From NCBI GenBank assembly GCA_041577335.1, contig JBFGJH010000002.1, positions 16,389 to 80,388 of the forward strand: 64,000 nt of DNA, in the 5' to 3' direction. The position numbers were made by a program, and so were the translations under genes. Of this stretch, positions 98 to 29,371 are shown one piece after another. The first letter of the stretch is position 1; each line of letters opens with the position of its first letter. Origin of the DNA: Acidimicrobiia bacterium. Lineage in GTDB: Bacteria; Actinomycetota; Acidimicrobiia; Spongiisociales; JAENVV01. The notes under the pieces were generated by a model that was not told the origin of the DNA, did not search any database, and saw only the letters and a list, made by a program, of their open reading frames with translations.

Positions 98-976
98 ATG
101 TCTATGTCTGAACCCCTCCACATCCCGCCGGCCGACCCGCCGCTCGTCGACTTCGTCGTCATCGGGGCCATGAAGTCCGGCACGTCGACATTGCATGCGT
201 GGCTCGATGAGAACCCGCAAGTTTCGATGTGCTCGTGGAAGGAGCCGAGCTTCTTCTCCAACGAGGACCGTTGGGAGCGCGGCGTCGCCTGGTACGCGGG
301 TCTGTTCCCTGCTGCCGATGGCGCAAAGCGCGGCGAAGCCTCCACGAGTTACACCGACCCCCGTTTCGCGGCGGTTGCCGCAGAGCGGATAGCCGGCCTC
401 GCGCCCGACGCACGGTTGATATATCTGGTGCGCCATCCCATCGATCGGTCTCGTTCCCACTACCGACATCAGGTCCAGCGGGGCCGAGAGAAACGGCCGC
501 TGGCAGAGGCGTTTGCCGACATCGATGCGTTGTACCTCAGCCAGAGTCAGTATTGGACGTGCCTTCAGCCCTACCTGGAGCGCTTTCCCCGCGACCAGAT
601 CCTGGTGGTGCGCCTCGAGGATCTCGTCACCGAGAGTAATGCCGCCTGGGGCTCCATCCAGCGCCACGTCGGGCTCTCGTCGAGGCCGCGTCCGACCACG
701 GTCAAGAACGTCACAGCCGACAAGAGTCAGTACACGTGGCTGATGCGATGGCTCTGGGAGCGGAATCTCCTCCCGTCCACAGCACTCATACCGAAGCCGC
801 TGCGAGGCTTGGGTCGACGGGTACTGATGCGGGATGACGATGCTTACGATCGTCTCATCCAGAACTCGCACGATCCTGTCCCGGAGGAGATGACTGCTGC
901 CGTGTGGGCCGACATCTCCAACCTCGAGGAATGGCTCGGGTCCACCAAACCGCTGTGGGACAGCTCAGCTCCCTAG
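98..976 (+). CDS. Sulfotransferase family protein (PAPS-dependent)
   Basis: The N-terminus FVVIGAMKSGTSTL fits the 5'-phosphosulfate-binding loop. A downstream YLVRHPIDRSRSHY matches the sulfotransferase 3'-PB region. It runs convergently to the next sulfotransferase, overlapping it by 4 nt. Confidence 0.75.
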   Translation: MSMSEPLHIPPADPPLVDFVVIGAMKSGTSTLHAWLDENPQVSMCSWKEPSFFSNEDRWERGVAWYAGLFPAADGAKRGEASTSYTDPRFAAVAAERIAGLAPDARLIYLVRHPIDRSRSHYRHQVQRGREKRPLAEAFADIDALYLSQSQYWTCLQPYLERFPRDQILVVRLEDLVTESNAAWGSIQRHVGLSSRPRPTTVKNVTADKSQYTWLMRWLWERNLLPSTALIPKPLRGLGRRVLMRDDDAYDRLIQNSHDPVPEEMTAAVWADISNLEEWLGSTKPLWDSSAP

Positions 977-1929
977 GCCCGTGATGGCCTCGTGCGCCGC
1001 CTCAGGTTCTTCCCCTTGGCTCGAGCTCGTTGCGCCTGCCATGTGAGCCATGCAGAGGCTGCGTGAGCCAGGCTGCCCGGGGTAGGCCGCCGGCCAGATA
1101 TCTCGTAGCCGAATGATGCCAAGGTCTTGCCGGCCAGCACCTCGAAGGTGGCGGCGTCTTTCGGCGACATCTGCTCCTTCCAATTGCGCAAGCCCTTGGT
1201 GGGCGGCAAAGCCAGCGACTGGTGGGCCGTGGGGTCGGCGGTCTCTGATCGAAGCTGTTCGCCCTGTTCGAAGTAGCGAAGCATTGCTGGATCGAAATCC
1301 AGCTCCAGGAACGGACTAAGTTCTCTCACGACTCTCTCGGGATCGGAAACCAGGTCTTCGTACTTCATTTCCCGGTATCGGTCTTTGCCCAGTTTGGCCC
1401 CCGACGACCGTCCGATGGTGACTCGGCGCTGCCAATAGAGCGCACCGGCGGGAACGTCTTTGGGCCCAAACTTGGTTTCCACATAGCTCAGGGCCACTGC
1501 CCGACCGTCCCGGATGACGTGCACGAACCGGGCTTCAGGAAACAGAACCGCAAGCCGTTCCATGTGCAAGACATAGCCCGGTGATTTGTCGCCGTAGCGA
1601 GCCTTGCCGCGCGCTGCTGCGTACTGCTGGAACACGCGTCTCACGGCGTCGGCGTAGTCGGCCGGGGGTCGATCGTGGAGGTCGGAAAGGAGCGCCCGTT
1701 CGTCGATTTCGAGACGGCGATAGTCGGGGATCCGGTTGAGATCGCGCACGAACATGTCAGCCGCGAATTTGCCGTCTTTGCCATACGGCCGGTCGGCGAG
1801 GCGGGGGATGAATTGTGACTCGTGGGTAATCGCCAGATCCGGATGGGCAGAGAAGATCGCTTGCACGAGCGTCGTGCCGGATCGGCCGGAGCCGATAAAG
1901 ATCGGGAACACGGGCTGCTGAGACGACAT
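973..1929 (-). CDS. Sulfotransferase (Stf0/Sulfotransfer_3-like)
   Basis: It carries FIGSGRSGTTLV as a P-loop-like PAPS motif and FVHVIRDGRAVALS as a 3'-PB-like region. It is the last gene of the minus-strand operon. Confidence 0.75.
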   Translation of the reverse strand: MSSQQPVFPIFIGSGRSGTTLVQAIFSAHPDLAITHESQFIPRLADRPYGKDGKFAADMFVRDLNRIPDYRRLEIDERALLSDLHDRPPADYADAVRRVFQQYAAARGKARYGDKSPGYVLHMERLAVLFPEARFVHVIRDGRAVALSYVETKFGPKDVPAGALYWQRRVTIGRSSGAKLGKDRYREMKYEDLVSDPERVVRELSPFLELDFDPAMLRYFEQGEQLRSETADPTAHQSLALPPTKGLRNWKEQMSPKDAATFEVLAGKTLASFGYEISGRRPTPGSLAHAASAWLTWQAQRARAKGKNLRRRTRPSRA

Positions 1930-1936
1930 AGGGGCT

Positions 1937-2749
1937 CTAGTAGCCGCTCAGCACACCGAGTTTGCGCCCGTATTCGAGAGCTCGGCCGTACAGCCACAGC
2001 GACAGGGGAAAGACGATGACGCAGAATCCCGTGAGCGCCAGCATGGCGGTATTCGACGACATCGATGGCAGGTCGCTGCCTACCGGCATCAGGACATTGC
2101 GGAGGGCGGCGACGGCGTAGGTGTGGGGGATGAGCCACGAGATCCACTGAAGGGCGGACGGAAGCTCGGAGACAGGGAAGAACACTCCCGAGAAGATCTG
2201 AACCAGCAGTCCGTAGATGAACAGAATGGGGTCACCCTGTTTGGCGAGCACCTTGAGCGAGGCAGACAGGGTGCCGATCGCAAGGCCGGCGACGAGACCG
2301 AGGGCAACAATCAGCAGGGCTGCCCACAGCTGGTCGGTGCGGAAGCGAGCGCCGAGCGCGACACCGATGGCAGCCATCAGCAGGGCATTGACGACTCCCT
2401 GGACGGCTCGCCATTGCACCATCGATATGGGCAAGAGCCGCCAATGGACAGGCTCGACCAAGAACATCTCCAGCCATCCACGGTTGATGGCGATATCGAT
2501 CTCTGTGCTGAAGCCACGCACACCGGTGTCCATGAAGCGGGATGCGAGCAGCCCAATGATCACGAACGAGAAGTAGTCGGGCTGCTCGACGAGGCGCGAG
2601 ACGAAGTAGAAGATGAACACCGGCAGAAGTGCGCTGAACTGATTGGTGATGAAGCCAAGCGGGTAGCTGAGCTCCTGTTGGAGGCCGAGGCGAAAGAACG
2701 CTCCGGCTACCTGAAGAGAACGGCGGGTTGAGCCAATGACAGCCTGCAT
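1937..2749 (-). CDS. ABC-2 type polysaccharide export permease (Wzm/KpsM-like)
   Basis: The translated ORF is about six TM helices of hydrophobic protein. It sits immediately downstream of an ABC ATPase, the typical ABC-2 arrangement. Confidence 0.7.
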   Translation of the reverse strand: MQAVIGSTRRSLQVAGAFFRLGLQQELSYPLGFITNQFSALLPVFIFYFVSRLVEQPDYFSFVIIGLLASRFMDTGVRGFSTEIDIAINRGWLEMFLVEPVHWRLLPISMVQWRAVQGVVNALLMAAIGVALGARFRTDQLWAALLIVALGLVAGLAIGTLSASLKVLAKQGDPILFIYGLLVQIFSGVFFPVSELPSALQWISWLIPHTYAVAALRNVLMPVGSDLPSMSSNTAMLALTGFCVIVFPLSLWLYGRALEYGRKLGVLSGY

Positions 2750-2750
2750 G

Positions 2751-3857
2751 TCAGCGCCTCTGCTCGTCGGGTATCAGCATCTTGGCGAGCAGGTCACGGA
2801 GTGGCATACGCGACACCGTGATCCCGGCGATTTCGTCCAGGCGCCCGTTGGCGGCCGCGAACAGATCGCCGACACCGAGCGTGCTCGACAAAACCACCGT
2901 CTCGTCTTCGCTTCGCACGACTTCGACTCCATCGATGGAACCGAGGAGGTCGACCGCCGCCGCTGCCGCCTCCGGAGTGTTGAACTTGGCTTCGAGGCGC
3001 GGTTGTTCCCACAGGCCCCGCAGGTTGTCGAGATGCCCGTCATAGACAATCTCGCCTTCGTTGAGGAGCAGCACGTGCTCCGGTAGCGCCTCGATCTCTT
3101 CGAGGCGGTGCGAGCTGATCAACGTGGCCATACCTTGCTCAACGGTTGCCTGCTTGATGATCTCGAGGAACTGGTACGCGGCTACGGGGTCGAGTGCACC
3201 GGTCGGCTCGTCCAGGATCAGCACCCTTGGGCGGTGCAGCAGGGCCCGAGCGAGTTGCAGGCGGGCCTTCATCCCCGAGGACAGGGCGAGTGCCAGACGA
3301 CCCGCCGCTCGTTCGAGGTTCACCAATTCCAGCACGCCGCGGATACGCCGGGGCAGCGCTTTGGACGGAATGCCCTGCAGCCTGCCATGGAACATGAGGT
3401 TCTCTTTCACGCTGTGGCGGCCGAGCAGCATTCGCTCGTCTGCGGCATGAAATCCGATGACTTTGCGGACTTGGAATGATTGGGTGGTGACGTCATATCC
3501 GTGGACGAAGCCGTCCCCGGTGGTCGGCGTCGTCAGTCCGGTCAGGGTGCGGAACAACGTGGATTTGCCGGCTCCATTGGGCCCGACAATGGCACAAATC
3601 GTGCCCGGCTCGACCTGGAACGAGACTCCTTTGAGTGCGTGAACCGGCTCCTTGATCGCCGAGCGCAGCAGAACTCTCATCATCGGCGGTGACGGAATAT
3701 ACGTCTTGCTGATGTTGCGGACGTCGACGGCGAAGCGTTCGTCGCCGCCGGTGCCTCTTCTGGGCCCCCGTTGCCGGGCACCCTCATCAGTTCGTCGCAG
3801 ATCTTGTCCCACGCCTAACCCCCTTTTGGAACGCTGGATGGTACCACTGTGTGTCAA
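2751..3857 (-). CDS. ABC transporter ATP-binding protein with C-terminal extension (Wzt/KpsT-like)
   Basis: It has the Walker A motif GPNGAGKST, the signature LSSGMKARL and the Walker B motif VLILDEPT. About 100 aa of C-terminal domain is present, as in Wzt. The true start may be an internal Met. Confidence 0.85.
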   Translation of the reverse strand: MTHSGTIQRSKRGLGVGQDLRRTDEGARQRGPRRGTGGDERFAVDVRNISKTYIPSPPMMRVLLRSAIKEPVHALKGVSFQVEPGTICAIVGPNGAGKSTLFRTLTGLTTPTTGDGFVHGYDVTTQSFQVRKVIGFHAADERMLLGRHSVKENLMFHGRLQGIPSKALPRRIRGVLELVNLERAAGRLALALSSGMKARLQLARALLHRPRVLILDEPTGALDPVAAYQFLEIIKQATVEQGMATLISSHRLEEIEALPEHVLLLNEGEIVYDGHLDNLRGLWEQPRLEAKFNTPEAAAAAVDLLGSIDGVEVVRSEDETVVLSSTLGVGDLFAAANGRLDEIAGITVSRMPLRDLLAKMLIPDEQRR

Positions 3858-3863
3858 CCCCTC

Positions 3864-5063
3864 TCAGTGCCGCGGCGTCTCGATGACGGTGCGGTAGAGC
3901 TTTTCGATCTCGTGGGCGACATCATCGCTGTTGAAGTCGTCGATCATGCGCTGGCGGGCTGCCTCCCCGAGCCGGCGTCGAAGCTCGTGATCGGTGCCCA
4001 ATTCGACCACTGCCTTGGCGATCGCTGCCGGATCTTGGGCCGAGACCAACAAACCGGTGTCTCGGTCACTCACGACCTCTGTCATGGGCGGCCGATCGGT
4101 GGTGACGCAGGCCAAGCCGCTGGCCATTGCCTGAAGGAGTGAGACCCCGAGCCCTTCGTAGAGAGAAGGGAATACAAAGATGTCCGCGGCGGCGAGCAAA
4201 CGGGGGATGTCCGGTCGCACTCCGATGAGGCGCACCGAGTCGGCAAGACCCAGTTCGGCGCTCTCCGTCGTGATTGGTGATGTTTTGGCCCCGGCGCTGC
4301 CCGCCGACAAGAAAACCGCGTTGGGAAGGTGTTCAAGAATCTCCGGCATTGCCCGCACAACGTAGATTTGGCCTTTCTGGGCGACCTGACGTCCTATGTT
4401 GAAGAGCAAGAGCGTGTCTTCGGATAGGCCGAATTCGAGAAGGACGCTTCGGCGCACCTCGCCTCTTTCCTCGGGGTCCGGCAGAGTGGCCGTGTCGACG
4501 CCGCGAGGGATGACCGTGATCTTCTCGGGGGGGATGTGAACGGTCTCAGCCCACGATCGGGCCACTTCCTGGCTCAGAGCGTGAAATCGAGTGATCCACC
4601 GCATCGTCAGTCTGTCGACGGCTCTGTGGAGGGCGAGCTTGAGTGGCGTGACTGCGTCGTTGTCCACCGCATGGACAGGCTCGTGGCTGACGTTCACCAG
4701 GCTCTCGACAACGGGAACGGCAGTGAGCCGACCAGCTACCCGTGCTGCCAGCGCGGCATCCGGGAGAGCACAATGCACCAGGTCCGGCGAGCGACTTCGG
4801 AAAGCGCCGAACATGCGCCGGATGAGTCGGAGCCGATTGCGGGTGCGTTCGTGCTGCGAGTAGAGGTAGGTGATCCGGACGTGGCCGGGCACTTCGCTTT
4901 CCCTGGTGTTGCCCTCTCCGGGGTAGAGACAGAGCAGTTCGTGTTCGAATCCGGCGTCCGTGAACCTTTGAAGGTTCGTGACCAGCTGCTGCTCGGCTCC
5001 CCCTGAGCGCCCGAGGGAGTCGATGACGTGCATGATGCGCATGGGCCGTTTTGATGCGGTCAT
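3864..5063 (-). CDS. Glycosyltransferase family 4
   Basis: The N-terminus is GT4-type (MRIMHVIDSLGRSGGAEQ). The C-terminal segment FVFPSLYEGLGVSLLQAMASGLACV carries the E-x7-E motif. The six-frame ORF runs on to 5276 but that extension overlaps the upstream gene, so I chose the ATG at 5063, which overlaps the upstream stop. Confidence 0.8.
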   Translation of the reverse strand: MTASKRPMRIMHVIDSLGRSGGAEQQLVTNLQRFTDAGFEHELLCLYPGEGNTRESEVPGHVRITYLYSQHERTRNRLRLIRRMFGAFRSRSPDLVHCALPDAALAARVAGRLTAVPVVESLVNVSHEPVHAVDNDAVTPLKLALHRAVDRLTMRWITRFHALSQEVARSWAETVHIPPEKITVIPRGVDTATLPDPEERGEVRRSVLLEFGLSEDTLLLFNIGRQVAQKGQIYVVRAMPEILEHLPNAVFLSAGSAGAKTSPITTESAELGLADSVRLIGVRPDIPRLLAAADIFVFPSLYEGLGVSLLQAMASGLACVTTDRPPMTEVVSDRDTGLLVSAQDPAAIAKAVVELGTDHELRRRLGEAARQRMIDDFNSDDVAHEIEKLYRTVIETPRH

Positions 5064-6202
5064 GGGACGTGCACGATTCGGTCGTAGTGTTTCTGGACGG
5101 CTGCCGCCACGGCTTCGGTGCCATACCGTTCGCTTGCCCAGCGGCTGATGACGGCTGGTGCCGCGAACTCGTCGGTCTCGAAGCCTTTGATGATGGCCTC
5201 GGCCACCGCCACGGCACTGGGGTCGTCGAAGGCAATCCCAACATGGGCAGCGAGCTCTTCGGAAACCCCGCCGCATCTGATCGTTACCGCAGGCGTGCCA
5301 CTGAGGAGCGCCTCCACGATGGCGACCCCGAAACTCTCGCGTTCTGAGGTGTGTACGTACAGAACCGCGTCCTGGAGGAGATCGGCAATCGTTTCGCGCT
5401 TCGTCTGGCCGTGGAATGTGATCGCACTTGCGAGGCCGAGTTCAGAGGCGAGGCGTTCGAGGCTCGCTCGCTGATCTCCACCCCCGATGATGTCGAGGTG
5501 GGTGTCGGGGTACCGAGCCACGACATGTTGCAGAGCGGCAATGAGCAGGTCATGGCGCTTCCGCGTGAGCAGATGCCCGATGGTGACGATCCGCCCGCCG
5601 GTCGAAGGAAGTGGCTTGGGATGGAACAGCGATGTATCGACTGGATTGGGGATAACGTCGAATGTGCCGGTGGCTCCGAGGCGACACGCCGATTCTTTCT
5701 GCTCCTCGCCGACGAAGAAAACTGCGGCAGCCTCGGCAAAGACGAGTTTCATGATGCGTATGCCTTCCCGGCTCAGGTGATGTTCTGGGTCTGGAGCGGC
5801 GAGGCGGCTGGTGTGCTCGGTGAGGACGAACGGGATTTGTAGTTGTCTGGCGACGCTGGGGATGGCTGCGGCGCCGGCGTAGAAATGACCGTGAATGATG
5901 TCCGGGTCCCAGTTGAGGAGCGTGAGCGCTCTGCGGATGGCGGCAGCCTCCCGGCCGGCGTTCCATTTCCAGAACAGACGCACCGGGCGTAGTCGTCGTC
6001 TCCGAACGAATACCGTCGTGAAGCCGCCGACGTCTCCAAGTGCGATTCCTTTTCCGATTCGTTCGGCTTGGCGAGGCAACGTCGGCAAGACACTGAGGCC
6101 GGTAACCCGCGAGAAGCGGGCTACAGCCTTGGCCCAATCGGTGATGAATGTCGGTCCACCCAGGCCGAGCATGACGCAGTGGTATTCACGCATCGGTGCC
6201 AC
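5060..6202 (-). CDS. Glycosyltransferase family 4
   Basis: YVHTSERESFGVAIVEALLSGTPAV is a GT4 E-x7-E motif. The N-terminal GT-B domain is present. Confidence 0.8.
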   Translation of the reverse strand: MAPMREYHCVMLGLGGPTFITDWAKAVARFSRVTGLSVLPTLPRQAERIGKGIALGDVGGFTTVFVRRRRLRPVRLFWKWNAGREAAAIRRALTLLNWDPDIIHGHFYAGAAAIPSVARQLQIPFVLTEHTSRLAAPDPEHHLSREGIRIMKLVFAEAAAVFFVGEEQKESACRLGATGTFDVIPNPVDTSLFHPKPLPSTGGRIVTIGHLLTRKRHDLLIAALQHVVARYPDTHLDIIGGGDQRASLERLASELGLASAITFHGQTKRETIADLLQDAVLYVHTSERESFGVAIVEALLSGTPAVTIRCGGVSEELAAHVGIAFDDPSAVAVAEAIIKGFETDEFAAPAVISRWASERYGTEAVAAAVQKHYDRIVHVP

Positions 6203-7037
6203 CTGTCGCGCGATATCCGAGGGCCATCATTTCGGGGCGACACCGTTCTTCTATCCGCATCATGTTGGCGGTCCCGAAAAACTCGACGAGCGGAACGTTG
6301 CGATTGGCCCCTTTGGCCTGGAATTGCTGATCGACCGACGCGGAGATATCTCCGGCCATGGGGAGTCCGAGCTGCTCCGCCAATCTCGCGATGGCGGCGG
6401 TCTTGTTCGCCCGAAAATCTTCATAACGAATGAGCGTGATGTCGGCCTCGTGGTCGAGGTACACCCGGACCATATCGGCCCATCGATCGGCGATCGCTTC
6501 GAGGTAGGTACTGCGATCGAAACCGGGCCGACCTTCGCCAAGGATCAAGCGCCAAGGTTTGGGAATATCGGCCCACCGGTCTGCGGCGATGGCTTCGTCG
6601 TCACCGGCGAGATCGAGTCGGTCGAGGATGCTCCGGATGTTGTCGCGCGGGTCGCGAACCACGAATACGAACTGGGAATGCGGGAAGCGGTTGTGGAGAG
6701 CCGGGTAGATCAGTGTCAGGTTGGGGTGCTTGACGATTGGAGCCGCGAACTCGTCTCGGTTCCTTTTGATGAGGTCCTCGAGGTCGGCTTGGCCGGAAAC
6801 GATGCGGGGAATGATGAGGTCACGGATCTCCTGTTTGAGGTCGATCGTCACGTCCATGCCCGTTTGCTCACCGAGCAAGGCAGCAATGACCGAAGTGCCG
6901 GCTTTCTGGTGGCCCAGGATGAACACGGGCTGATGGCTCGGCGGGAGCGGTGGAGCGGTAAACGAACGCCATCGGGTGATCGCGGAGCGCCGGGCGCGTC
7001 CGGCGGCCGAGCGGATGCGGTGGGCAGTGATGGTCAT
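6186..7037 (-). CDS. Sulfotransferase family protein
   Basis: It has FILGHQKAGTS as the 5'-PSB P-loop and FVFVVRDPRDNIRS as the 3'-PB motif. I chose the start at MTITAH (the ATG at 7037), which overlaps the deacetylase stop by 4 nt. The longer ORF upstream of that is an out-of-frame overlap with the deacetylase gene. Confidence 0.75.
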   Translation of the reverse strand: MTITAHRIRSAAGRARRSAITRWRSFTAPPLPPSHQPVFILGHQKAGTSVIAALLGEQTGMDVTIDLKQEIRDLIIPRIVSGQADLEDLIKRNRDEFAAPIVKHPNLTLIYPALHNRFPHSQFVFVVRDPRDNIRSILDRLDLAGDDEAIAADRWADIPKPWRLILGEGRPGFDRSTYLEAIADRWADMVRVYLDHEADITLIRYEDFRANKTAAIARLAEQLGLPMAGDISASVDQQFQAKGANRNVPLVEFFGTANMMRIEERCRPEMMALGYRATGGTDA

Positions 7038-7858
7038 GGTCCGTCGTATTTGGTCAATCGGCGCCGCACATTCTCTTCCGTGCGTTGTCCCCGGCGCACC
7101 TTGCGTTTGAAGAAGATCACTCCATCGTCGAGCTGCACGGGGATCCGGTTGAGAAGGAGCGGGTCGCTGGCGCCGTCGATGGGCTGGCCCCCCCCGAGTA
7201 CTGCTGAGGCGTACTGTTCCCGAACCGCACTGTCGCATGATCGTGACCAGTAGCCCCACGGATAGGCGAAGTGGTCGGGCTTGACGCCGGTGCGGCGTTC
7301 GATGAGTTCGGTGGACAGGCCGATCTCTTCCTCTGCCTGTGGTGGTTCCAGCGTTCGGAAGTCCGGGTGGGTGTGGGTGTGGGCGCCGACGGTCACGAGA
7401 CCCGACTCCTGCATCGCATTGACCTGCTCCCAGGTGATCGGCGCCGATCGGCCGTCGTCCGACAACGGCGTCCGAGCTTCGATGGGGTGGCTGGTGAGGT
7501 AGACCGTGAATGGGATGTGGAATTCCTTGAGCAGTGGATAAGCGTTGCGGTACATATCGTCGTATCCGTCATCGAACGTGAGCACCACATGGTCAGCCGA
7601 GCCGGATTCCGCCCTCCGGTCGATCGCCTCCTCCAGGGGAAGGACCGAGAAGCCGGAGTTGGTCAAGTACTCGAGGTGACTACGGAAGTGGTCAGGGTCG
7701 AGGTCCATTTGTTTGCGGTTGCCGGCGCCGATTTGGTGATAGATGAGGATCCTGGGGCCTGGAAAGGCTCCCAAGGAAAGGTCGAGGAGCGAGAAGACCG
7801 TTTTGGCCGCCGCTCGGACGGGAGAGCCCATCAGGCGGATCCGCCGGAATCGAGCCAT
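7034..7858 (-). CDS. Polysaccharide deacetylase (CE4/NodB-homology)
   Basis: The NodB motifs are present: VVLTFDDGYDD, YLTSHPIEAR, a histidine cluster and HTHTHPDF. It is translationally coupled to the sulfotransferases on both sides. Confidence 0.85.
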   Translation of the reverse strand: MARFRRIRLMGSPVRAAAKTVFSLLDLSLGAFPGPRILIYHQIGAGNRKQMDLDPDHFRSHLEYLTNSGFSVLPLEEAIDRRAESGSADHVVLTFDDGYDDMYRNAYPLLKEFHIPFTVYLTSHPIEARTPLSDDGRSAPITWEQVNAMQESGLVTVGAHTHTHPDFRTLEPPQAEEEIGLSTELIERRTGVKPDHFAYPWGYWSRSCDSAVREQYASAVLGGGQPIDGASDPLLLNRIPVQLDDGVIFFKRKVRRGQRTEENVRRRLTKYDGP

Positions 7859-8754
7859 TGGAGGTCGTAGCCGAGGAGGGCAGCAAGGTGCTCGTTGTGT
7901 TGTCGGAAGACGTCGGCCAGATGCTCACGAATGCCCGTGTCCACGGCGAGGCTGTCGGCGCGCCCCGCTCTCCCATAGCTGTGATTGGCAAACTCGGGTG
8001 GGTGCCAGTCCTCGATTCCCAAGAACGATTCGATCGCCGAAAGGGCGTGCCGAGGGTCGGAGGTGAGGTCCTCGAACCGAACCACCATCATCTGGTCTTG
8101 GGGGTACCAGGCTTGCCACCGGATGAGCTGTTCGGCGTATTTGCCTCGCTCGACATAAGAGTACCGTCGCAGCGGCCGGGCGTGATACGTCGGGTCGTCG
8201 GCGATGCGCTCCATTTCTCGGGCAAGGCGCTCGTCCTCGCGCTGCAACGCCTCCTCGAGAGTCAGCGGTTCTTGGCCGAGGCGCCGATTGTGTCCGTATT
8301 GGGAAATCGCACGGTCGATGGGATTGCGAATGAGGGTGATGATCTTCGCTTCTGGGATCAGGTGGGCGGCCCGCTGCGCCGCCAGGGGATGCAAGAGGTA
8401 ATCGGGGGTCGCCTCGAACGCCAAGGTGGGTTGCGCGCGTCGCCTTGAACGGACAGTTCGGCTTGCGCTGAGTGGGAAATGTGCCCGGTACCAATCCTCG
8501 CCCTCGAGGAACCTCGTCGAGAAATACTCCACCTCCTTACGAAGCGATGGATACACCTGCGGATGTGCTCCGAGATATTTGTACAGCGAACTCGTCCCGG
8601 ACCGTTGGGCGCCGACGATGAGCAGGTCGGGGAGGCTGCGCGCCCGAGAAGTCAACTGGCGTGTGCGAACGCGGGTCTCGGCGAGCTGGCGGCGCCGTTT
8701 GGTCGGAGTCTTCTCCTTGATCCATCCAGCGATCGCTGGAGTCACCGCAGGCAC
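7831..8754 (-). CDS. Sulfotransferase family protein
   Basis: LLIVGAQRSGTSSLYKYL is the PAPS P-loop and ITLIRNPIDRAISQYGH is the 3'-PB motif. Confidence 0.8.
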   Translation of the reverse strand: MPAVTPAIAGWIKEKTPTKRRRQLAETRVRTRQLTSRARSLPDLLIVGAQRSGTSSLYKYLGAHPQVYPSLRKEVEYFSTRFLEGEDWYRAHFPLSASRTVRSRRRAQPTLAFEATPDYLLHPLAAQRAAHLIPEAKIITLIRNPIDRAISQYGHNRRLGQEPLTLEEALQREDERLAREMERIADDPTYHARPLRRYSYVERGKYAEQLIRWQAWYPQDQMMVVRFEDLTSDPRHALSAIESFLGIEDWHPPEFANHSYGRAGRADSLAVDTGIREHLADVFRQHNEHLAALLGYDLQWLDSGGSA

Positions 8755-8757: not shown

Positions 8758-11124
8758 CTAGCGACCAGAGCTGGCGGTATCGTCGTAGGAGCTGAGACGC
8801 TGCTCTCGGGGAACCTGGGGGAGGGGCTCCATATCGTTGTATGGCCACTCTTTGATCCAGTCGACGACCGCTCGGGTGCGAGACACCGGAGTCGGATGGT
8901 TCGGGGACGCGCTGGTCGCGTCGATGGCTACCTGGTCGGTCTCGGGCGCAGAACGAGGCTTCTTCTTGGGGGGTGGCGCAGGCGGTTCGGATGGCACGTT
9001 GACGCTCTGGGGTTTCTGACTGGTGCGGCGCGAGGGTGCTGGTCCGGGTGACGATGCCGCTTCCTTCGCGGGTGCTGGCGCAGCGGGTGCTGGCACCTCG
9101 GCGGCCGGAGTATCGGATGGCTGGGCAGCCGGAACCGCGGGTGCAGGTGCGGTGGGCGCTGCGGCTTTCTTCTGCTTCTTTTCGGTTTTCTGTTCTTTCT
9201 TCTTGGCTCTGGTTGCCTTCTTGGTCTGGGTTGGACTGCTGGTCGTAGCTCGGCTCCCTTTGCGGCTCTTCGGGCGGAAGAAGTTGCGAATCCTGCCGAA
9301 GAACCCTGACGATGGTGAGCCGGTGAGCAGCGCCGCACCCAAGGCGGGAGCCAGCCCTGCATCGACGTCGGTAAGCAGTAGATCCAGGGCGGCGCGGCGG
9401 CTCACTCGCTCCAGGACCACGGCCACGACGCCGTCGACCCGCTGGCGGAGAGCCTGGGTGAGCTCGGCCGACGCAGGTGGCATGACTGCGAGGATGACGT
9501 CGAAGTGCTGACGAGCCGCGCTCATCAGATCAACGAAACCGTCGGTGAGCACAGCATCGGTGGCGTCGTCGATCATGCTCCCTGGGGCAACGACTCTCAG
9601 TTTCCTCTCCTCGGGCCCGTCGATCAGGGTTTCCTTGAAGTAGGAGTTGCCGGTCTCCCGGTCATTGCGCATGACCTGCAGGAGTTTGGAAACGGTTACG
9701 CCGCTGCTTCCTTCGTAGTGGACGGTGGTGTCGAAGTTCAGATCGACGACGAGGACGAAGCGGTCGGATGCGGCGAGGCGGTTGCCGATGTCGAGCGCCA
9801 AGATGCTCACTTCGCTGTCGTTGACGCTCACCCCAGACAGTCCGAGGACCAGCGTGGTAGGCGATGAATCGACATAGCGGAGTATTGCGTGGCGCATCTG
9901 GCGAACACCATCGGCGCGTTCGCCTGCCAATCGTCCCGAGCGGTCCGTGCTGGCGCGCCCCTTCGTCGTTGCTGCACTGGGCAGCTCGGCGATGACCGGC
10001 AGCGGAGCGATGTCGGTCGGCCCGTAGATATTGCCGCGAGCGCTCTTGGATGCAAAGAGCAGACCGACACCGAGCAGGGCCCCGGCCAGCAGTCCGAGAA
10101 CGGCGTTGAGTGGAGCGGAGACGGGCGACGGGGTGAGGTCCTCGACCTCGACGGGTACCAGGACCGCCGGAGTCTCGCTTTCCGCTTCGAGGAAAAGATC
10201 GCCGAACTCGGAGGTGAGGTCGCCGTAGCGGTCCTCGAGCGCGTCGAGCGTCAACTGATCGGTGAGACCTCCCTCCGGCACTTCGTCAGGTGTGACGTCG
10301 CGCGGATCCTGAGGCACGTTGGGCGCAGCCGGCGTTTGCGAACCTCCCTGGTTGCCCTGATTCGTCTGCGGCGTGATGTCTGCCGGGTTGAGTCCGTTCT
10401 CCAAAGCAATGACTACGAGCTCAGACCTGATCGCGGCCATCCGGAATTGGATGTCGTCGATCTGTTCTTGAATCTCCTCGGGGTCATCGACTCGTTCGTC
10501 GCCCGATTGCGCCAACACGAGGTTGACTTCGAGTTGGGTGAGCTGCTGGTCGAGGGCATCATGGAGGTCCTGGAGAGAATCGATACGAGCTTGGAGGGCG
10601 ACGCCGATGACTGGCTCCTCGACGATCAACTCGACCGGTGTCAGGCGTTCGATCTGTTGCAGGACTTCGGCAGCTTCGATGATGATCTCGTCGAGGCGTG
10701 CTTGGCGTTCATCGGCACGTGCTTGAGCCGTGCCGTTGACGTAGGCGGCGCGAAGGCTCTCGGAGGCAACCGCGGCCTCGGTCCGGTCTTCGCTTCTCGC
10801 CAAAAAGAGGAGTCGGAAGTTGGGCTCGTCGATGGCCAACTGGCCGACTCGTTGCTCGAGGGCGGTGGCGTTGTAGACACGTGCTTCTTCGGCGGCTGCC
10901 CTGACGAGTTCCAGCGTGGTGTCGCGACTCCGATCGCCCAGCTCCGATTCGAACTCGACGTAGGTGGTCGCCTCGAAGAGAGGTTTGATGGCTTGGTTGG
11001 CCCGCTCTGATATGGCGTACCCGAGCACTGCACCCACGAGCGCCAGCGCGACGACTGCCCACCACTTGCGGCGGACCATTCGAAAAAGACCTGTGAGAAC
11101 TTTCAAACCGCTCATACCCCCCAA
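8758..11124 (-). CDS. Polysaccharide co-polymerase / BY-kinase-like protein with degenerate Walker A and long K/A/P-rich tail
   Basis: An N-terminal TM helix is followed by a long coiled-coil periplasmic region and a second TM helix. The cytoplasmic domain is CpsD/Wzc-like (VLVVDLNFD and FDVILAVMPP), but the Walker A position reads GLSGVSVNDSEV, with no GKS/T. The C-terminal 150 aa or so is low complexity (KKATRAKKKEQKTEKKQKKAAAPTAPAPAVP and so on). Confidence 0.6.
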   Translation of the reverse strand: MGGMSGLKVLTGLFRMVRRKWWAVVALALVGAVLGYAISERANQAIKPLFEATTYVEFESELGDRSRDTTLELVRAAAEEARVYNATALEQRVGQLAIDEPNFRLLFLARSEDRTEAAVASESLRAAYVNGTAQARADERQARLDEIIIEAAEVLQQIERLTPVELIVEEPVIGVALQARIDSLQDLHDALDQQLTQLEVNLVLAQSGDERVDDPEEIQEQIDDIQFRMAAIRSELVVIALENGLNPADITPQTNQGNQGGSQTPAAPNVPQDPRDVTPDEVPEGGLTDQLTLDALEDRYGDLTSEFGDLFLEAESETPAVLVPVEVEDLTPSPVSAPLNAVLGLLAGALLGVGLLFASKSARGNIYGPTDIAPLPVIAELPSAATTKGRASTDRSGRLAGERADGVRQMRHAILRYVDSSPTTLVLGLSGVSVNDSEVSILALDIGNRLAASDRFVLVVDLNFDTTVHYEGSSGVTVSKLLQVMRNDRETGNSYFKETLIDGPEERKLRVVAPGSMIDDATDAVLTDGFVDLMSAARQHFDVILAVMPPASAELTQALRQRVDGVVAVVLERVSRRAALDLLLTDVDAGLAPALGAALLTGSPSSGFFGRIRNFFRPKSRKGSRATTSSPTQTKKATRAKKKEQKTEKKQKKAAAPTAPAPAVPAAQPSDTPAAEVPAPAAPAPAKEAASSPGPAPSRRTSQKPQSVNVPSEPPAPPPKKKPRSAPETDQVAIDATSASPNHPTPVSRTRAVVDWIKEWPYNDMEPLPQVPREQRLSSYDDTASSGR

Positions 11125-11303: not shown

Positions 11304-13055
11304 TTGATCCCCGTTGCGGCGCCCCAACAATCGATGAGGTCGCTCCCCATGTCCCTTCCCATCAATCCCCGGCTGGTAGTCGCAATCGCACTCACGTTAG
11401 GTGCTTTTGCGCTCGCTTTTGGTGGCATCCAGGCAAACGCCGCCACGGTCGTCCAGATCTCCGGCGAGGTTTCCTACCCGCAGTCGACCACCGTCACATC
11501 AGACGAGGTGCTTCGCTTCGATCCCGCCCAAGACACGACGCTGGAGGTGAGCGGGAACCTCGTCATCGAGGGGACGCTCGAGATGAAACCCAATAAGGGC
11601 GTGACGCACACGCTCCGGTTCCTCGCGGTCAATGAGGCCGGCATGGTCGGCGGCGGGATGCAGGTGCTCGAATCCGATCGCGGGCTCTGGGTCGTGGGAA
11701 GCGGACAGCTCGACCTGCACGGCGAAGAAACAGTGGGTTGGAATCGCACCGGGACGGATTCCACGTGGAGCTCGAGCGACGACCTGAGGATCGCCCCCTA
11801 CCTCGCAGGTGATTACGCGTCCGGAGGATTCGACTCCTTTGCGCTCGGTTCGCCCGTGCCGGTCGCCGATCCCACACTTCCCCCAACAGAGGTCATGAAT
11901 CTGACCCGGTCGGTCAACATCGAAGGTACGCCGGGGGGACGATCCCATGTGATCGTCATGAGCTCCCAGCCGCAAGAGGTTCGCTACGCCACGTTCCGGT
12001 ACATGGGACCACGCCAGGACTCCGAGGGCGTGATGGGCAGGTATCCGATCCATTTCCACATGAACGGTGACAGCTCCCGAGGATCGATCGTCGAAGGAAA
12101 TGTGGTCCGTGAGTCAGGAAATCGCGGCATCGTCGTTCACGCGTCGCATGGCGTGATCGCACGGGGCAACGTGATCTATGACGTAGTCGACGACCCATTC
12201 TGGTGGGACCTCGGTGAGGAGAACGCCTCCCACGACGTGGTATTGGAGGGCAACCTCGCAGGTCTGGTCAAGAACGACCCCAAGAAACAGGGCTACACCC
12301 TGTCGGCATTCCACCTCGGTCGCGGTGAAGGCAACGTTGCCAACGGGAACGTTGCAGTGGGCGTCCAAGGCAACAAGAACTGCTCTGGCTTCAACTGGCC
12401 GAGTCAAGGGAGCGGCCTGTGGGAGTTCCAGGACAACGTTGCCCACAACAACAAGTGTCACGGCATCTTCGTGTGGCAGAACAGCTCCGCCAACCACCTC
12501 ATCGAGGATTTCATCGCCTACCGCAACGGGTCTACCGGCGTGAATCACGGGGCTTACACCAATGACTATGTCTACGAGAACCTCTACTTGTTCGAAAACC
12601 TGGAATACGGCGTGGTCAGCCACGCGTTCTCGCACCCGCCGCGTTCAGGGCAGCTCCAGCAAACCTGGTCGTGCGTCACAGTCGTCGGCTCGCCAGTCGG
12701 CCTGTCGGTTTCGGTTTCCAACGCCCCCGAGTTCGGGCATCCGGCGTTGTTCGACCATTTCACGGTGATCGATACGCCGGTGGCCACGCATGTCGAGCAA
12801 AACGCACTCGAAAACGGCCAGACGCTCGAAACAAGGGTGACGTTGGTGAACTTCAATGTTCCATGTGTCGGATCGCCGGTCCCTGATCCTGACGAGCCTG
12901 ATCCTGACGAGCCTGATCCTGACGAGCCTGATCCTGATCAGCCTGATCCTGATCAGCCTGATCCTGACGAGCCTGATCCTGACGATCGGCCGGAGCGGCC
13001 CGACCGGCCGCAACGTCCGCCCCGTGGTCCACGGTGGATATCGGGTACTCCGTAA
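11304..13055 (+). CDS. Secreted right-handed parallel beta-helix protein with C-terminal (PDPDEP)n tail (putative glycan hydrolase/lyase)
   Basis: It has a signal peptide (VVAIALTLGAFALAFGGIQANA) and repeated beta-helix rungs (NVVRESGNRGIVVHASHGV, NVAHNNKCHGIFVWQNSS). It is a paralogue of the next gene. The start could instead be the ATG at 11334 or 11349. Confidence 0.65.
   Translation: MIPVAAPQQSMRSLPMSLPINPRLVVAIALTLGAFALAFGGIQANAATVVQISGEVSYPQSTTVTSDEVLRFDPAQDTTLEVSGNLVIEGTLEMKPNKGVTHTLRFLAVNEAGMVGGGMQVLESDRGLWVVGSGQLDLHGEETVGWNRTGTDSTWSSSDDLRIAPYLAGDYASGGFDSFALGSPVPVADPTLPPTEVMNLTRSVNIEGTPGGRSHVIVMSSQPQEVRYATFRYMGPRQDSEGVMGRYPIHFHMNGDSSRGSIVEGNVVRESGNRGIVVHASHGVIARGNVIYDVVDDPFWWDLGEENASHDVVLEGNLAGLVKNDPKKQGYTLSAFHLGRGEGNVANGNVAVGVQGNKNCSGFNWPSQGSGLWEFQDNVAHNNKCHGIFVWQNSSANHLIEDFIAYRNGSTGVNHGAYTNDYVYENLYLFENLEYGVVSHAFSHPPRSGQLQQTWSCVTVVGSPVGLSVSVSNAPEFGHPALFDHFTVIDTPVATHVEQNALENGQTLETRVTLVNFNVPCVGSPVPDPDEPDPDEPDPDEPDPDQPDPDQPDPDEPDPDDRPERPDRPQRPPRGPRWISGTP
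12883..12990 (+). repeat. 18-bp tandem repeat (cctgatcctgacgagcct x6, minor variants) encoding PDPDEP/PDPDQP
   Basis: The repeat is directly visible in the sequence. It is in frame within the CDS 11304..13055. Confidence 0.9.
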
Positions 13056-13250
13056 TCGAAATCTCCCGGCCTGCCTGAACTCTCGCCGACTTGTTGCACG
13101 TTTAACTAAAGCGGGGAGCCTGGTTAACCGATGCTGCATGAGGGTTCAGGCGGGCTGAGGGGCAACACACATCTCCCAAGATGGGAGTGTCGCCCGCACA
13201 GGAACAGCCCACCCGGGCAAACCCAGAAAACCACGAGAGGTCGTTCTCCC

Positions 13251-16847: not shown

Positions 16848-17033
16848 TGCTCGGAGATACCGAGCACCGAATCGAGCGACGCAGCACTGGTATTCGTGTG
16901 AATCCGTTGCTACGCTCGGTGGCAAGGGATTGGGACTGTGAACAGATCGGGGTCGCTCCGCTGGCTATCGACAACGCCACCTGAGCGGGCATCTTCTGGT
17001 CCCACTCACGACACGTAAAGAGGGGTTATTGAC

Positions 17034-18284: not shown

Positions 18285-18296
18285 CGGTCGCACGCC

Positions 18297-21176: not shown

Positions 21177-21262
21177 CTTGAAGCCTCTGGCTTCAAGAAG
21201 CGACGATGCGCTCTGGGCTCCAACTTCTTGAAGCCTCTGGCTTCAAGAAGCGACGATGCGCT
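21177..21262. repeat. Tandem 36-bp direct repeat (period 50 bp), each copy containing a 9-bp-stem hairpin (tcttgaagcc-tctg-ggcttcaaga); the second copy spans the stop codon of the CapD-like gene
   Basis: Copies at 21177-21212 and 21227-21262 are identical. Each contains an internal palindrome. They lie between convergent genes, so a bidirectional terminator is likely. Confidence 0.7.
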
Positions 21263-27279: not shown

Positions 27280-27317
27280 GGACGGTTGCTGGGGGGGAAA
27301 GATCATTGGTTTCAGCC

Positions 27318-29361: not shown

Positions 29362-29371
29362 GCGTTGTTCC

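Follow-up and report, generated by a model that had tools for sequence, protein, structure and literature searches.

A sulfotransferase–deacetylase operon for a putative sulfated cell-surface heteropolysaccharide in an uncultured Acidimicrobiia-type bacterium

Genes of the operon and their coupling

The window, a stretch of 64,000 nucleotides from an Acidimicrobiia bacterium, carries a packed operon of nine genes on the minus strand, in the order Wzz-like, ST1, CE4, ST2, GT4, GT4, ABC ATPase, ABC-2 permease and ST3. The original prediction had read the stretch from 6186 to 8754 as a sulfotransferase, a CE4 deacetylase and a second sulfotransferase. An ORF check of the window recovered all three on that strand, and Pfam matches bear out their identities. 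ST1, CE4 and ST2 are real genes and not chance ORFs, since homologues below E 1e-50 number in the hundreds for each, and the AF2 models of ST1 and CE4 are of high confidence.

The first gene (8758..11124) encodes a polysaccharide co-polymerase-type, Wzz-like protein of 788 aa with weak matches to Pfam Wzz (residues 10–65) and TIGR01007, transmembrane segments at residues 20–42 and 335–361, and a Pro/Ala/Lys-rich tail. Three nucleotides further on lies ST1 (7831..8754; 307 aa, or 304 aa from an alternative GTG), followed by CE4 (7034..7831; 265 aa) and ST2 (6186..7037). The 283-aa start of ST2 is supported by homologues that span 100% of its length, and its stop is overlapped by 8 nt by the start of a GT4 glycosyltransferase (5060..6193; Pfam Glycos_transf_1 and Glyco_transf_4). 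An ATGA at 5063 joins this gene to the second GT4 (3864..5063; Pfam), whose start we place at that overlap. The 70 Arg-rich N-terminal residues of its longest ORF are spurious; the homologue in the related locus L001 has 402 aa and abuts its preceding gene. The DrrA/NodI-like ABC transporter ATPase (2751..3857; Pfam ABC_tran) has NCBIfam drrA and nodI matches, every one under the equivalog cut-off, and its true start probably lies downstream of TTG 3857, its homologue in L001 having 309 aa. The ABC-2 type permease, the exporter (1937..2749; Pfam ABC2_membrane), follows after 1 nt, with hydrophobic stretches inside residues 114–255 that fit several transmembrane helices. After another 7 nt comes ST3 (973..1929), and on the plus strand ST4 (98..976) converges on it at the operon end.

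The overlaps around CE4 had been noted at the outset. A 28-nt overlap with ST1 holds for the longest CE4 ORF (274 aa, 7858..7034), which begins at ATG 7858, upstream of the ST1 stop at 7833..7831. The true start is most likely the in-frame ATG 7831, because CE4 homologues are nearly all 265 aa long and begin with M-[GAS]-S-P-[IV]-R; the overlap would then be a single nucleotide (TGATG) that shares the last base of the ST1 TGA. The ATGA overlap between CE4 and ST2 was confirmed (ST2 ATG 7037..7035, CE4 TGA 7036..7034). Tight coupling is common to the whole operon and not peculiar to these three genes.

The glycan locus continues at 21243..30361, where Pfam annotation shows its second half. This comprises a Polysacc_synt_2 dehydratase (21243..23231, minus strand), a GT4 (23433..24584, plus), a GT4-GNAT fusion (24581..26341, plus), a WecA-like PF00953 initiating transferase (26329..27279, plus), an Acetyltransf_9 protein (27318..28268, minus), another GT4 (28261..29361, minus) and an NAD epimerase/dehydratase (29372..30361, minus). 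In L003, L005, L166 and L167 these genes run contiguous with the Wzz-like–(ST1)–CE4–GT4 block. Genes for an acyl-CoA dehydrogenase and an acyl-CoA synthetase are syntenic between the window (18297..21019) and L167.

The deacetylase and the four sulfotransferases

CE4 matches Pfam Polysacc_deac_1 (PF01522) at E 2.7e-27 and, in PDB sequence searches, IcaB (1e-15), PgaB (5e-15) and 6dq3 (2e-12). Its AF2 model (pLDDT 92.7) gave Foldseek matches to IcaB (1.8e-17), PplD (6dq3; 4e-17) and PgaB (1.5e-16), which agrees with the fold comparison originally proposed. The best 13 fold matches (E 1e-15 to 1e-17) are the PNAG deacetylases IcaB, PgaB and BpsB and the linkage-unit GlcNAc de-N-acetylase PplD, except for three Bacillus entries (4v33, 4hd5 and 6go1) annotated at deposition as putative deacetylases of polysaccharide or peptidoglycan. 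By sequence and fold CE4 is classed as a PgaB/IcaB/PplD-type de-N-acetylase. The catalytic Asp and His residues, whose loss had been named as a sign of an inactive enzyme, are all in place: H32, D87, D88, H151, H155 and R229 are complete and invariant in 41 homologues, within the motifs Y31-H32, T85-F-D87-D88-G89, H151/H155, Y190-P191-x-G193 (YPWG) and R229. The YH His, DD, HxxxH and Arg elements are common to CE4 and PgaB, IcaB, BpsB and PplD.

Secretion or surface anchoring is the rule for these relatives, which act on the product of a GT2 synthase once it has been exported. CE4 differs from them in three respects: it has no signal peptide or transmembrane segment (maximum 19-residue hydropathy 1.37), it carries conserved basic C-terminal helices (residues 240–265), and its locus is of the GT4/ABC-2 kind, a scan of roughly 50 window ORFs having turned up no GT2 synthase. 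Signal peptides and transmembrane segments are likewise absent from ST1–4. Such segments do occur in the Wzz-like protein and the permease. Since CE4 lacks a signal peptide, it is predicted to be cytoplasmic and should act beside the PAPS-type sulfotransferases before export; deacetylation and PAPS-dependent sulfation could thus share one compartment. A precedent for a CE4-fold enzyme that treats a lipid-linked sugar on the cytoplasmic side, ahead of flipping, is the deformylase ArnD, which acts on undecaprenyl-linked Ara4FN. Its relation to CE4 is very distant (Foldseek rank 23, 11% identity, TM 0.37), and its substrate is another one. Acetylxylan esterases and peptidoglycan deacetylases also belong to the CE4 family and appear at Foldseek ranks 14–50 (about 1e-6). 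An alternative is that CE4 is no glycan de-N-acetylase of this pathway and only shares its operon, acting instead as an O-acetyl esterase or as a deacetylase of peptidoglycan. We regard this as highly improbable: the best matches are of the PNAG and PplD kind with the exceptions given, peptidoglycan would be out of reach of a protein with no signal peptide, and CE4 is strictly syntenic with glycan-assembly genes.

ST1 matches Pfam Sulfotransfer_3 (E 4e-21) and Sulfotransfer_1 (3e-19). As a single sequence its PDB matches are 1nst (2e-24) and 3rnl (8e-24); a family profile gives 3rnl (1e-42), 3-OST3 (2e-36) and NST (1.4e-33). The AF2 model (pLDDT 91) matches 3rnl, NST and 3-OST at about 1e-13 each in Foldseek, and the NDST1 NST domain shares 25–27% identity and a TM of ~0.65 with ST1. 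These comparisons place ST1 in the heparan-sulfate NST/3-OST class, as a homologue of the NDST1 sulfotransferase domain. The structural comparison with NDST1 proposed at the outset shows a likeness, and 3-OSTs match equally well: 3-OST-1, -3 and -5 reach profile E-values of 2e-36 to 1e-29 and Foldseek values of ~1e-12 to 1e-13. NST is the best match for the single sequence only. Because the profile favours 3-OST3 and Foldseek ties, homology does not point to N- over O-sulfation by ST1.

Residues R51 (5'-PSB, GAQRSGTSS), E74, R143/S151 (3'-PB) and H155 are invariant in ST1. E74 aligns with NST Glu642, the proposed catalytic residue, and H155 with NST H716, a position occupied by Gln in 3-OSTs (PMC3733922). 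The His and Asp of the 3-OST E-x-H-x-x-D motif are missing, as is the (S/T)KGR loop (NST Lys833/Arg835), and the 5'-PSB has Arg in place of NST Lys614. An Arg-type PSB, found in both ST1 and ST3, has been reported for NodH (PMC11625862).

ST2 is a PAPS-type sulfotransferase of a broad, uncharacterised bacterial family, with matches over the cut-off to Sulfotransfer_3 (48 bits, E 2e-12) and Sulfotransfer_1 (24 bits, E 2e-5) and with the motifs GHQKAGTS (5'-PSB, 42–49) and RDPRDNIRS (3'-PB, 128–136). A PDB sequence search returned no significant match, and homologues were found in Acidimicrobiia, cyanobacteria, Krumholzibacteria and Myxococcota. ST3 (Sulfotransfer_3, E 6.5e-34) is TPST/CurM-ST-like, matching TPST1 (1e-13), the olefin-synthase sulfotransferase domain 4gox (7e-13) and CurM ST (6e-9), and a gene like it is kept in most related loci. 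ST4, likewise a sulfotransferase by Pfam, is 3-OST-like in its PDB matches, with 3-OST3 (7.6e-13) as its best match and NST at 8.6e-10.

Gene order in related loci

With one genome counted per species, 22 of 76 loci have ST1 and CE4 side by side and coupled; among the 20 closest ST1 homologues the coupling is seen in 15, spread over at least three ST1 clades. In these 15, ST1 has the Wzz-like gene directly on one side and CE4 directly on the other, with ST1/CE4 gaps of -7 to +35 nt. The two genes also adjoin in L001, L005, L166, L167 and L168. One clade with the pair comes from contigs binned as Thermoanaerobaculia, and its CE4 is much more divergent. CE4 is absent within 10 kb in the other five of the 20, the closest species-level homologue (L006) included. 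One protein, P0192, is an in-frame fusion of a Wzz-like C-terminal domain and an ST1 homologue.

In most related loci the gene immediately upstream of ST1 or CE4 is Wzz-like, and in L087, L089, L091 and L093–L095 this gene adjoins CE4 directly, without ST1. A span of about 20 kb in L093 and L094 gave no sulfotransferase match; NeuB, UDP-GlcNAc 2-epimerase or GT2 is present there instead. L003 has CE4–GT4 without an adjacent sulfotransferase. CE4 is a core gene of the locus, with orthologues in sulfotransferase-free loci as well. The association is asymmetric: CE4 mostly adjoins ST1 homologues, yet is often found without ST1. ST2 travels with the GT4–GT4–ABC block and not with CE4; in L169 a homologue accompanies GT4–GT4–ABC–ABC2 where CE4 is missing, and in L170 the context is unrelated. 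The three genes had been proposed as a unit. The sulfotransferase–CE4–sulfotransferase sandwich is limited to one lineage, and what recurs is the ST1–CE4 pair.

Possible chemistry of the pathway

We tentatively propose, with a probability of about 0.45, that the operon builds and exports a sulfated cell-surface heteropolysaccharide, in which CE4 frees an amine and the sulfotransferases O-sulfate. The operon would be the tailoring-and-export arm of a conserved locus with Polysacc_synt_2, Wzz-like, CE4 and GT4 genes as its core and the four PAPS-type sulfotransferases as lineage-variable add-ons, ST1 with CE4 and ST2 with the GT4–GT4–ABC block. The WecA-like enzyme would start the glycan on undecaprenyl phosphate, GT4 enzymes would extend it at the cytoplasmic face of the membrane, where it would also be modified, and the ABC-2 transporter would then send it out. 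CE4 would be an active, cytoplasmic, metal-dependent de-N-acetylase converting a HexNAc, most likely GlcNAc, to a free-amine hexosamine. O-sulfation of hydroxyls is the most likely chemistry, in line with all bacterial glycan sulfotransferases yet characterised; those named in a 2024 review (NodH, KpsS and Stf0) are O-sulfotransferases (PMC11625862). The polymer would then bear free amines and sulfate esters, and deacetylation and sulfation would be chemically independent steps of one pathway. Several points argue against this reading: the ST1–CE4 coupling goes beyond what a loose tie within one pathway would call for, the asymmetry is the pattern expected of a consumer of the CE4 product, and a cytoplasmic PgaB-type deacetylase is unusual, with the fate of the free amine left open.

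Those points suit a split analogue of animal NDST, the logic originally suggested, which we consider plausible but less likely: CE4 would deacetylate GlcNAc on a cytoplasmic lipid-linked glycan, ST1 would N-sulfate the freed amine and a GlcNS polymer would be exported. NDST likewise joins a metal-dependent (beta/alpha)7-barrel de-N-acetylase with an Asp-His-His triad to a PAPS sulfotransferase of the structural class of ST1 (PMC10864358). The recurrent coupled pair, the shared predicted compartment, the intact CE4 active site, the E74/E642 and H155/H716 correspondences and the loss of the 3-OST His and Asp all favour it, as do colorimetric assays reporting N-sulfated hexosamine in bacterial EPS (PMC7356697, PMC10788855); these reports also count against the O-sulfation reading. 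On the other side stand the equal or better 3-OST matches, the missing Lys833/Arg835 loop and the Lys-to-Arg change in the PSB, the CE4 orthologues that serve sulfotransferase-free loci, and the close ST1 homologues with no CE4 nearby. A literature search found no bacterial glycan N-sulfotransferase. The deacetylases also differ in family: the NDST domain resembles Agd3 (PMC10864358) and falls with CE18 (PMC13353177), and NDST1 is neither among the sequence matches of CE4 nor in its top 50 fold matches. Here, moreover, the activities lie on two proteins, the sulfotransferase preceding the deacetylase. NDST is Golgi-lumenal, whereas this system is predicted to be cytoplasmic and ABC-exported, with N-sulfation a candidate only.

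The asymmetric synteny would fit equally well if ST1 were an O-sulfotransferase that needs the CE4-made amine for specificity and sulfates a hydroxyl, either on the same sugar or on a neighbour. Animal 3-OST-3 is reported to act on N-unsubstituted glucosamine, and it is the best animal match of ST1 by family profile. The absence from ST1 of the 3-OST His, Asp and KGR loop makes this explanation unlikely.

Nod factor modules (NodB CE4, NodH/NoeE, NodIJ ABC-2) similarly cluster a cytoplasmic CE4, PAPS sulfotransferases and an ABC-2 exporter, and NCBIfam NodB, NoeE, NodI and NodJ matches in the locus are weak, all far under cut-off. By NodB/NodA logic, CE4 could free the amine for a locus GNAT (Acetyltransf_9 at 27318..28268 or the GT4-GNAT fusion at 24581..26341) to attach another acyl group to it, leaving the sulfotransferases as unrelated O-decorations. 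GNAT genes are kept in the core locus beside CE4-containing blocks, and the syntenic acyl-CoA genes would suit such a swap; the GNATs never lie beside CE4 or show coupling to it, and no NodA-like gene was seen, so that we judge it improbable. Nod modules differ further in their NodC-type GT2 and in the C6 O-sulfation by NodH, as against a Wzz-associated, presumably WecA-initiated polymer made by GT4 enzymes.

The proposed O-sulfated heteropolysaccharide has parallels in Synechocystis xss (synechan) and Actinoplanes wps-1. Both are polysaccharide loci that encode several PAPS sulfotransferases, and WpsH of wps-1 carries a heparan-sulfate sulfotransferase domain (PMC13390465, PMC13125312). The wps-1 system is Wzx/Wzy-dependent, with no deacetylase listed, and sulfated polysaccharide production by actinomycetes is still unverified (PMC13390465). 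In the window, a SulP/STAS sulfate permease gene (31108..33006, plus strand; Pfam Sulfate_transp E 1.5e-88, and STAS) lies close to the second half of the locus, a proximity that makes it a possible source of sulfate. The xss system, too, is Wzx/Wzy-dependent.

Operon layout and the deacetylase

The gene run sulfotransferase–deacetylase–sulfotransferase, which the original prediction read as a split bacterial analogue of NDST (the N-deacetylase/N-sulfotransferase for heparan sulfate in animals) and as a source of N-sulfated aminosugar, is borne out by the ORFs of the minus strand and their Pfam assignments. It forms part of a longer run of abutting ORFs that opens with a Wzz-like protein of 788 aa (11124..8758) and continues with the sulfotransferase ST1 (8754..7831), the de-N-acetylase CE4 (longest ORF 7858..7034), the sulfotransferase ST2 (7037..6186), the GT4 glycosyltransferases GT4a (6193..5060) and GT4b (5063..3864), an ABC ATPase (ABC_tran, 3857..2751), an ABC-2 permease (ABC2_membrane, 2749..1937) and the sulfotransferase ST3 (1929..973). 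A fourth sulfotransferase gene, ST4 (98..976, plus strand), converges on the operon end. All four sulfotransferases score above the curated cut-offs of Pfam Sulfotransfer_1/3, and CE4 above that of Polysacc_deac_1 (E 2.7e-27). The G+C content of the window is ~62%, and two reading frames were discarded as high-GC artefacts: a 452-aa antisense ORF over ST2 and GT4a (5895..7253, plus strand), which is no gene, and the Arg-rich N-terminal extension of 70 residues in the longest ORF of GT4b (5063..5276, minus strand).

Translational coupling had been claimed for the triad. The overlap of CE4 with ST2 is indeed an ATGA. The 28-nt overlap between ST1 and CE4 holds for the longest CE4 ORF but not for its likely start: since nearly all CE4 homologues are 265 aa long and begin with M-[GAS]-S-P-[IV]-R, translation likely starts at the in-frame ATG at 7831, which would overlap the ST1 stop by one base (TGATG). 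The junction gaps resolved across the operon are +3, -1, -4, -8, -4, +1 and +7 nt; as such tight spacing runs through the whole operon, coupling is no special trait of ST1-CE4-ST2.

CE4 belongs with the PgaB/IcaB/PplD-type enzymes. Among the sequences of solved structures it matches IcaB (1e-15), PgaB (5e-15) and PplD (6dq3, 2e-12), and also BpsB. The original prediction had pointed to PgaB and IcaB for structural comparison, and the AF2 model of CE4 (pLDDT 92.7) matches both in Foldseek, together with PplD and BpsB, at E values of 1e-15 to 1e-17 (IcaB 1.8e-17); the TM scores of the top matches lie at 0.64–0.73 on the query and reach 0.83 on the target. The same range of E values takes in the entries 4v33, 4hd5 and 6go1, all three from Bacillus and registered as putative deacetylases of polysaccharide or peptidoglycan; other CE4-family esterases and peptidoglycan deacetylases match more weakly (~1e-6), and ArnD is a distant fold match. 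NDST1 is absent from the sequence matches and from the top 50 fold matches.

The catalytic Asp and His residues are intact, none being missing among 41 aligned homologues, so that the loss named by the original prediction as its refutation does not occur. Invariant in this alignment are H32 of the N-terminal YH, D87/D88 of TFDDG, H151/H155 of HTHTH, the YPWG motif and R229, and H32, D87, D88, H151, H155 and R229 align with IcaB, PgaB and the 6dq3 chain. We take these residues to be the full catalytic set of PgaB/IcaB: the (beta/alpha)7 barrel, the Asp-His-His metal triad, the Asp base, the YH-motif His acid and the Arg are all present.

The chemistry is thus that of PgaB, IcaB and PplD, whereas compartment and pathway type differ. 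Those enzymes are extracytoplasmic and act after export, and unlike them CE4 has no signal peptide or transmembrane segment, its hydropathy over 19 residues peaking at 1.37. A conserved amphipathic helix containing Asp forms its N-terminus and two conserved basic helices its C-terminus, and we infer from the sequence a cytoplasmic, probably membrane-proximal enzyme. Cytoplasmic CE4-fold enzymes have precedents in NodB and ArnD. The homologue P0100 carries, behind the basic tail, a C-terminal extension with two transmembrane-like segments.

Two known pathway types were considered and rejected. A PNAG-type system does not fit, as there is no GT2 synthase among the ~50 window ORFs scanned and CE4 has no signal peptide. 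The Nod system has a cytoplasmic CE4 enzyme, sulfotransferases and an ABC-2 exporter in common with the operon, but neither a NodC GT2 nor NodA occurs among the same ~50 ORFs, where the only transferases are of the GT4 and PF00953 types; NCBIfam matches to NodB, NodI, NodJ and NoeE fall far below the cut-offs.

The NDST logic is resembled, yet membership fails, because the activities are unfused and the deacetylase families differ. NDST is one fused polypeptide, whereas ST1 and CE4 are encoded by two ORFs, each with a start and a stop codon of its own, and the homologue lists of ST1 and CE4 hold no ST1-CE4 fusion. The NDST deacetylase domain is Agd3-like, grouping with CE18 (PMC10864358, PMC13353177), and comes with an N-terminal accessory domain; CE4 of the window falls in the PgaB/IcaB branch.

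The sulfotransferases

Single-sequence comparison with the PDB places the NDST1 sulfotransferase domain (NST) first for ST1 (2e-24), with 3rnl, an uncharacterised Alicyclobacillus sulfotransferase, as runner-up (8e-24) and the heparan sulfate 3-O-sulfotransferases (3-OSTs) following at 1e-16 to 1e-11. A profile built from 42 family members ranks 3rnl first (1e-42), then 3-OST-3 (2e-36), NST (1.4e-33) and 3-OST-5/3-OST-1 (~1e-30). Foldseek with the AF2 model (pLDDT 91) puts 3rnl, NST and the 3-OSTs side by side, at E values of 1e-14 to 1e-12 and TM ~0.65. A specific likeness to NST therefore exists for the single sequence only; we rejected it as evidence of N-sulfation, because it is absent from both the family profile and the fold search. 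Of the NDST1 likeness originally suggested for structural comparison, the NST-class fold stands, but the 3-OSTs match equally well.

The active-site residues of ST1 give a mixed picture as well. Its PAPS motifs are GAQRSGTSS (5'-PSB, 48-56) and RNPIDRAIS (3'-PB, 143-151). The invariant E74 aligns with NST Glu642, presumably the catalytic base, and is equivalent to the catalytic Glu of 3-OST-3. The likewise invariant H155 is equivalent to NST His716, where the 3-OSTs carry Gln, and of the 3-OST motif E-x-H-x-x-D the His and Asp are missing from ST1. An invariant Arg51 replaces the PSB Lys (NST Lys614), as reported for NodH (PMC11625862). The (S/T)KGR loop common to NST (Lys833/Arg835) and the 3-OSTs has no counterpart in ST1, in a region of low model confidence. 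With profile, fold and residue comparisons thus divided, homology places ST1 in the NST/3-OST class as a predicted glycan sulfotransferase, as distant from the N-sulfotransferases as from the 3-O-sulfotransferases, and gives no regiochemistry.

The other three sulfotransferases are diverse. ST4 is 3-OST-like and ST3 TPST/CurM-like, both with the same 5'-PSB and 3'-PB motifs. ST2 has no significant relative among solved structures, and its catalytic base was not identified, though both PAPS motifs are present (GHQKAGTS, 42-49; RDPRDNIRS, 128-136); its family spreads over cyanobacteria, Krumholzibacteria, Myxococcota and others. Neither CE4 nor any of ST1–ST4 carries an export signal. The homologue P0192 is an in-frame fusion of a Wzz-like C-terminal domain with an ST1 homologue, the only fusion in the homologue lists, and hints that ST1 may work attached to the Wzz-like protein.

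Synteny of ST1, CE4 and ST2

A scan with the ST1-family alignment through a collection with one genome per species gave 80 loci, mostly from MAGs named as Acidimicrobiia or other Actinomycetota and a few binned to other phyla, whose six-frame ORFs were scored with family HMMs. Sequence extends at least 1 kb downstream of ST1 in 76 loci, of which 22 have a CE4-family gene directly after ST1 in the same orientation, spaced by -7 to +38 nt; where ST1 reaches at least 430 bits (20 loci), an orthologous CE4 (>370 bits) takes this position in 15. In 22 more ST1 loci a CE4-family gene lies elsewhere within 10 kb. The 36 ST1 loci with no CE4 within 10 kb include L015, L021, L023, L043 and L006, the closest species-level homologue. 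In a neighbour-joining tree of ST1 homologues the adjacency occurs in at least three separate clades, namely a large Acidimicrobiia clade, the clade of the window itself and two contigs that binning assigns to Thermoanaerobaculia and that carry a far more divergent CE4.

Seen from the deacetylase, the association is looser. Separate look-ups of five CE4 homologues found a Wzz-like gene (called, with no Pfam match) followed by ST1 and CE4 in four; in L166 and L167 a GT4 comes directly after CE4, and in L001 ST2 intervenes. The fifth shows CE4-GT4 with no adjacent sulfotransferase. A CE4-centred metagenome scan returned ~10 close orthologues; ST1 is present in one of the eight that were informative, and the Wzz-like gene abuts CE4 directly in six of these eight. 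The remaining hits were distant CE4 proteins (~30% identity), almost all in loci without a sulfotransferase. With so few close orthologues, one of eight in the scan against four of five in the look-ups, the probability of finding ST1 given CE4 is a rough figure. Loci L093 and L094 have no sulfotransferase match in ~20 kb and carry NeuB and UDP-GlcNAc 2-epimerase (nonulosonic-acid genes) or a GT2 instead, and hence the deacetylase also serves non-sulfated glycans; the gene order there is Polysacc_synt_2, Wzz-like (890 aa), CE4. Since ST1 lies mostly beside CE4 and CE4 often occurs without ST1, the dependence is asymmetric: as judged from gene neighbourhoods, CE4 is a core gene of the locus that does not need ST1, and not a servant of the sulfotransferases.

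Of the proposed triad, the ST1-CE4 pair is recurrent, but the adjacency of CE4 and ST2 is confined to one lineage. The full sandwich occurs only in relatives of the window (L001, L002, L168 and the short contigs common to the CE4 and ST2 match lists). Elsewhere ST2 homologues lack CE4, and we discarded ST2 as a general partner of the deacetylase. In L169 the ST2 homologue stands beside a GT4-GT4-ABC-ABC2 block and shares the locus with six further sulfotransferase genes, and the stretch in view lacks CE4; L170 shows an ST2 homologue in an unrelated context. The window operon looks like two juxtaposed modules, a putative Wzz-like-ST1-CE4 unit and a putative ST2-GT4-GT4-ABC-ABC2-ST3/ST4 unit. 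With seven sulfotransferase genes and a beta-helix protein, L169 is an unusually dense sulfation cluster.

Sulfation chemistry and the wider glycan locus

The operon is a genuine, conserved sulfated-glycan operon, and the hallmarks of an ABC-dependent pathway are present, with ABC_tran and ABC2_membrane in the operon and a WecA-like PF00953 transferase in the locus. Undecaprenyl phosphate would carry the growing glycan on the cytoplasmic side of the membrane, where CE4 would de-N-acetylate a HexNAc residue and the sulfotransferases would use PAPS to sulfate the glycan; the finished product would then leave through the ABC-2 exporter of the operon.

We favour, at a probability of roughly 0.45, sulfation of hydroxyl groups that is chemically independent of deacetylation. 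To our knowledge every characterised bacterial glycan sulfotransferase is an O-sulfotransferase, and these precedents, the core status of CE4 and the neutrality of the homology evidence set the estimate. N-sulfation by ST1 of the amine freed by CE4 in the lipid-linked glycan, at the cytoplasmic face, is the less probable but still plausible reading. The recurrent tight coupling of ST1 and CE4, the asymmetric dependence of ST1 on CE4 and their shared compartment speak for it; against it stand the loss of NST-likeness in the profile search and the role of CE4 as a core enzyme that is also found in loci without sulfotransferases. What survives of the NDST proposal is the conserved pair with an intact deacetylase, and what falls away is the NST-specific likeness and the generality of the triad. 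The pair is a reasonable, testable candidate for bacterial N-sulfation, with synteny as its sole basis. That ST1 is an O-sulfotransferase which needs the free amine for recognition appears improbable; the remaining probability is shared between an N-acyl swap and a CE4 function unrelated to this pathway.

The literature searched held no description of a bacterial glycan N-sulfotransferase or of a sulfotransferase-CE4 pair. For Pontiella EPS and for granular sludge, N-sulfated hexosamine has been reported from colorimetric nitrous-acid/DMMB assays (PMC7356697, PMC10788855), production of sulfated polysaccharides by actinomycetes has so far only been predicted from gene clusters (PMC13390465), and heparin engineering is turning to artificial deacetylase-NST fusions, as NDST expresses poorly in bacteria and a version compatible with prokaryotes is lacking (PMC13353177). 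If N-sulfation were true, ST1 and CE4 would be a native two-protein N-deacetylase/N-sulfotransferase of prokaryotes acting on GlcNAc, and a heparan-like polymer with GlcNS would be exported by soil and sediment Acidimicrobiia (and, judging by binned contigs, by some Thermoanaerobaculia). N-sulfated sugars would then have, for the first time outside animals, a genetically defined route. Heparin bioengineering would gain a prokaryote-native deacetylase/N-sulfotransferase pair, the "N-sulfated GAG-like" signals of bacterial EPS and granular sludge (PMC7356697, PMC10788855, PMC10483923) would have a genetic explanation, and the result would bear on how early the NST/3-OST fold acted on glucosamine. 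If it is false, a useful correction is still gained: the deacetylase is a core enzyme and the sandwich a lineage-specific juxtaposition of modules.

Sulfated polysaccharides are considered rare in bacteria. The window locus and ~100 related loci, from MAGs mostly assigned to Acidimicrobiia (other phyla account for a few), point to an ABC-exported surface glycan with several sulfotransferases as a widespread trait of this poorly cultured class.

The other half of the glycan locus lies at 21–30 kb and comprises a Polysacc_synt_2 dehydratase, GT4 enzymes, a GT4-GNAT fusion, the WecA-like PF00953 transferase, an Acetyltransf_9 protein and an epimerase. The GT4-GNAT gene (24581..26341, plus strand) overlaps that of the WecA-like transferase (26329..27279, plus strand) by 13 nt, and the pair is conserved in L003, L005, L166 and L167. 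A SulP/STAS sulfate permease (31108..33006, plus strand) follows ~750 bp past the last glycan gene. Neither a motif scan (APS kinase, ATP sulfurylase, CysQ) nor Pfam finds PAPS-synthesis genes in the window, and PAPS supply must therefore be encoded elsewhere.

Two CEMIP-type beta-helix proteins (11304..13055 and 13131..15362, plus strand) are encoded just upstream of the operon, on the strand opposite to it; in L001, L166 and L169 their homologues are likewise in synteny with the sulfated-glycan locus. A (PDPDE/Q)n repeat closes the first, and SLH domains are present in the second. Depolymerisation or processing of the polymer is a possible role for them, as is binding it as wall-anchored proteins. 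Near-full-length ORFs overlap on opposite strands at 17034..18284 (plus) and 16965..18293 (minus); the product of the former resembles FAD-dependent halogenases/monooxygenases, and a homologue adjoins the locus in L001. Between the halves of the glycan locus lie genes for an acyl-CoA dehydrogenase and an AMP-binding acyl-CoA synthetase (18297..21019, plus strand). In L167 both genes recur after the glycan locus, which could be plain synteny or reflect the supply of an unusual acyl group. Towards the far end of the window, genes for Mrp-type Na+/H+ antiporter subunits occupy 57904..63553 (minus strand), and the AT skew rises to ~+0.19 from 58 kb on, which agrees with minus-strand genes for membrane proteins being T-rich.
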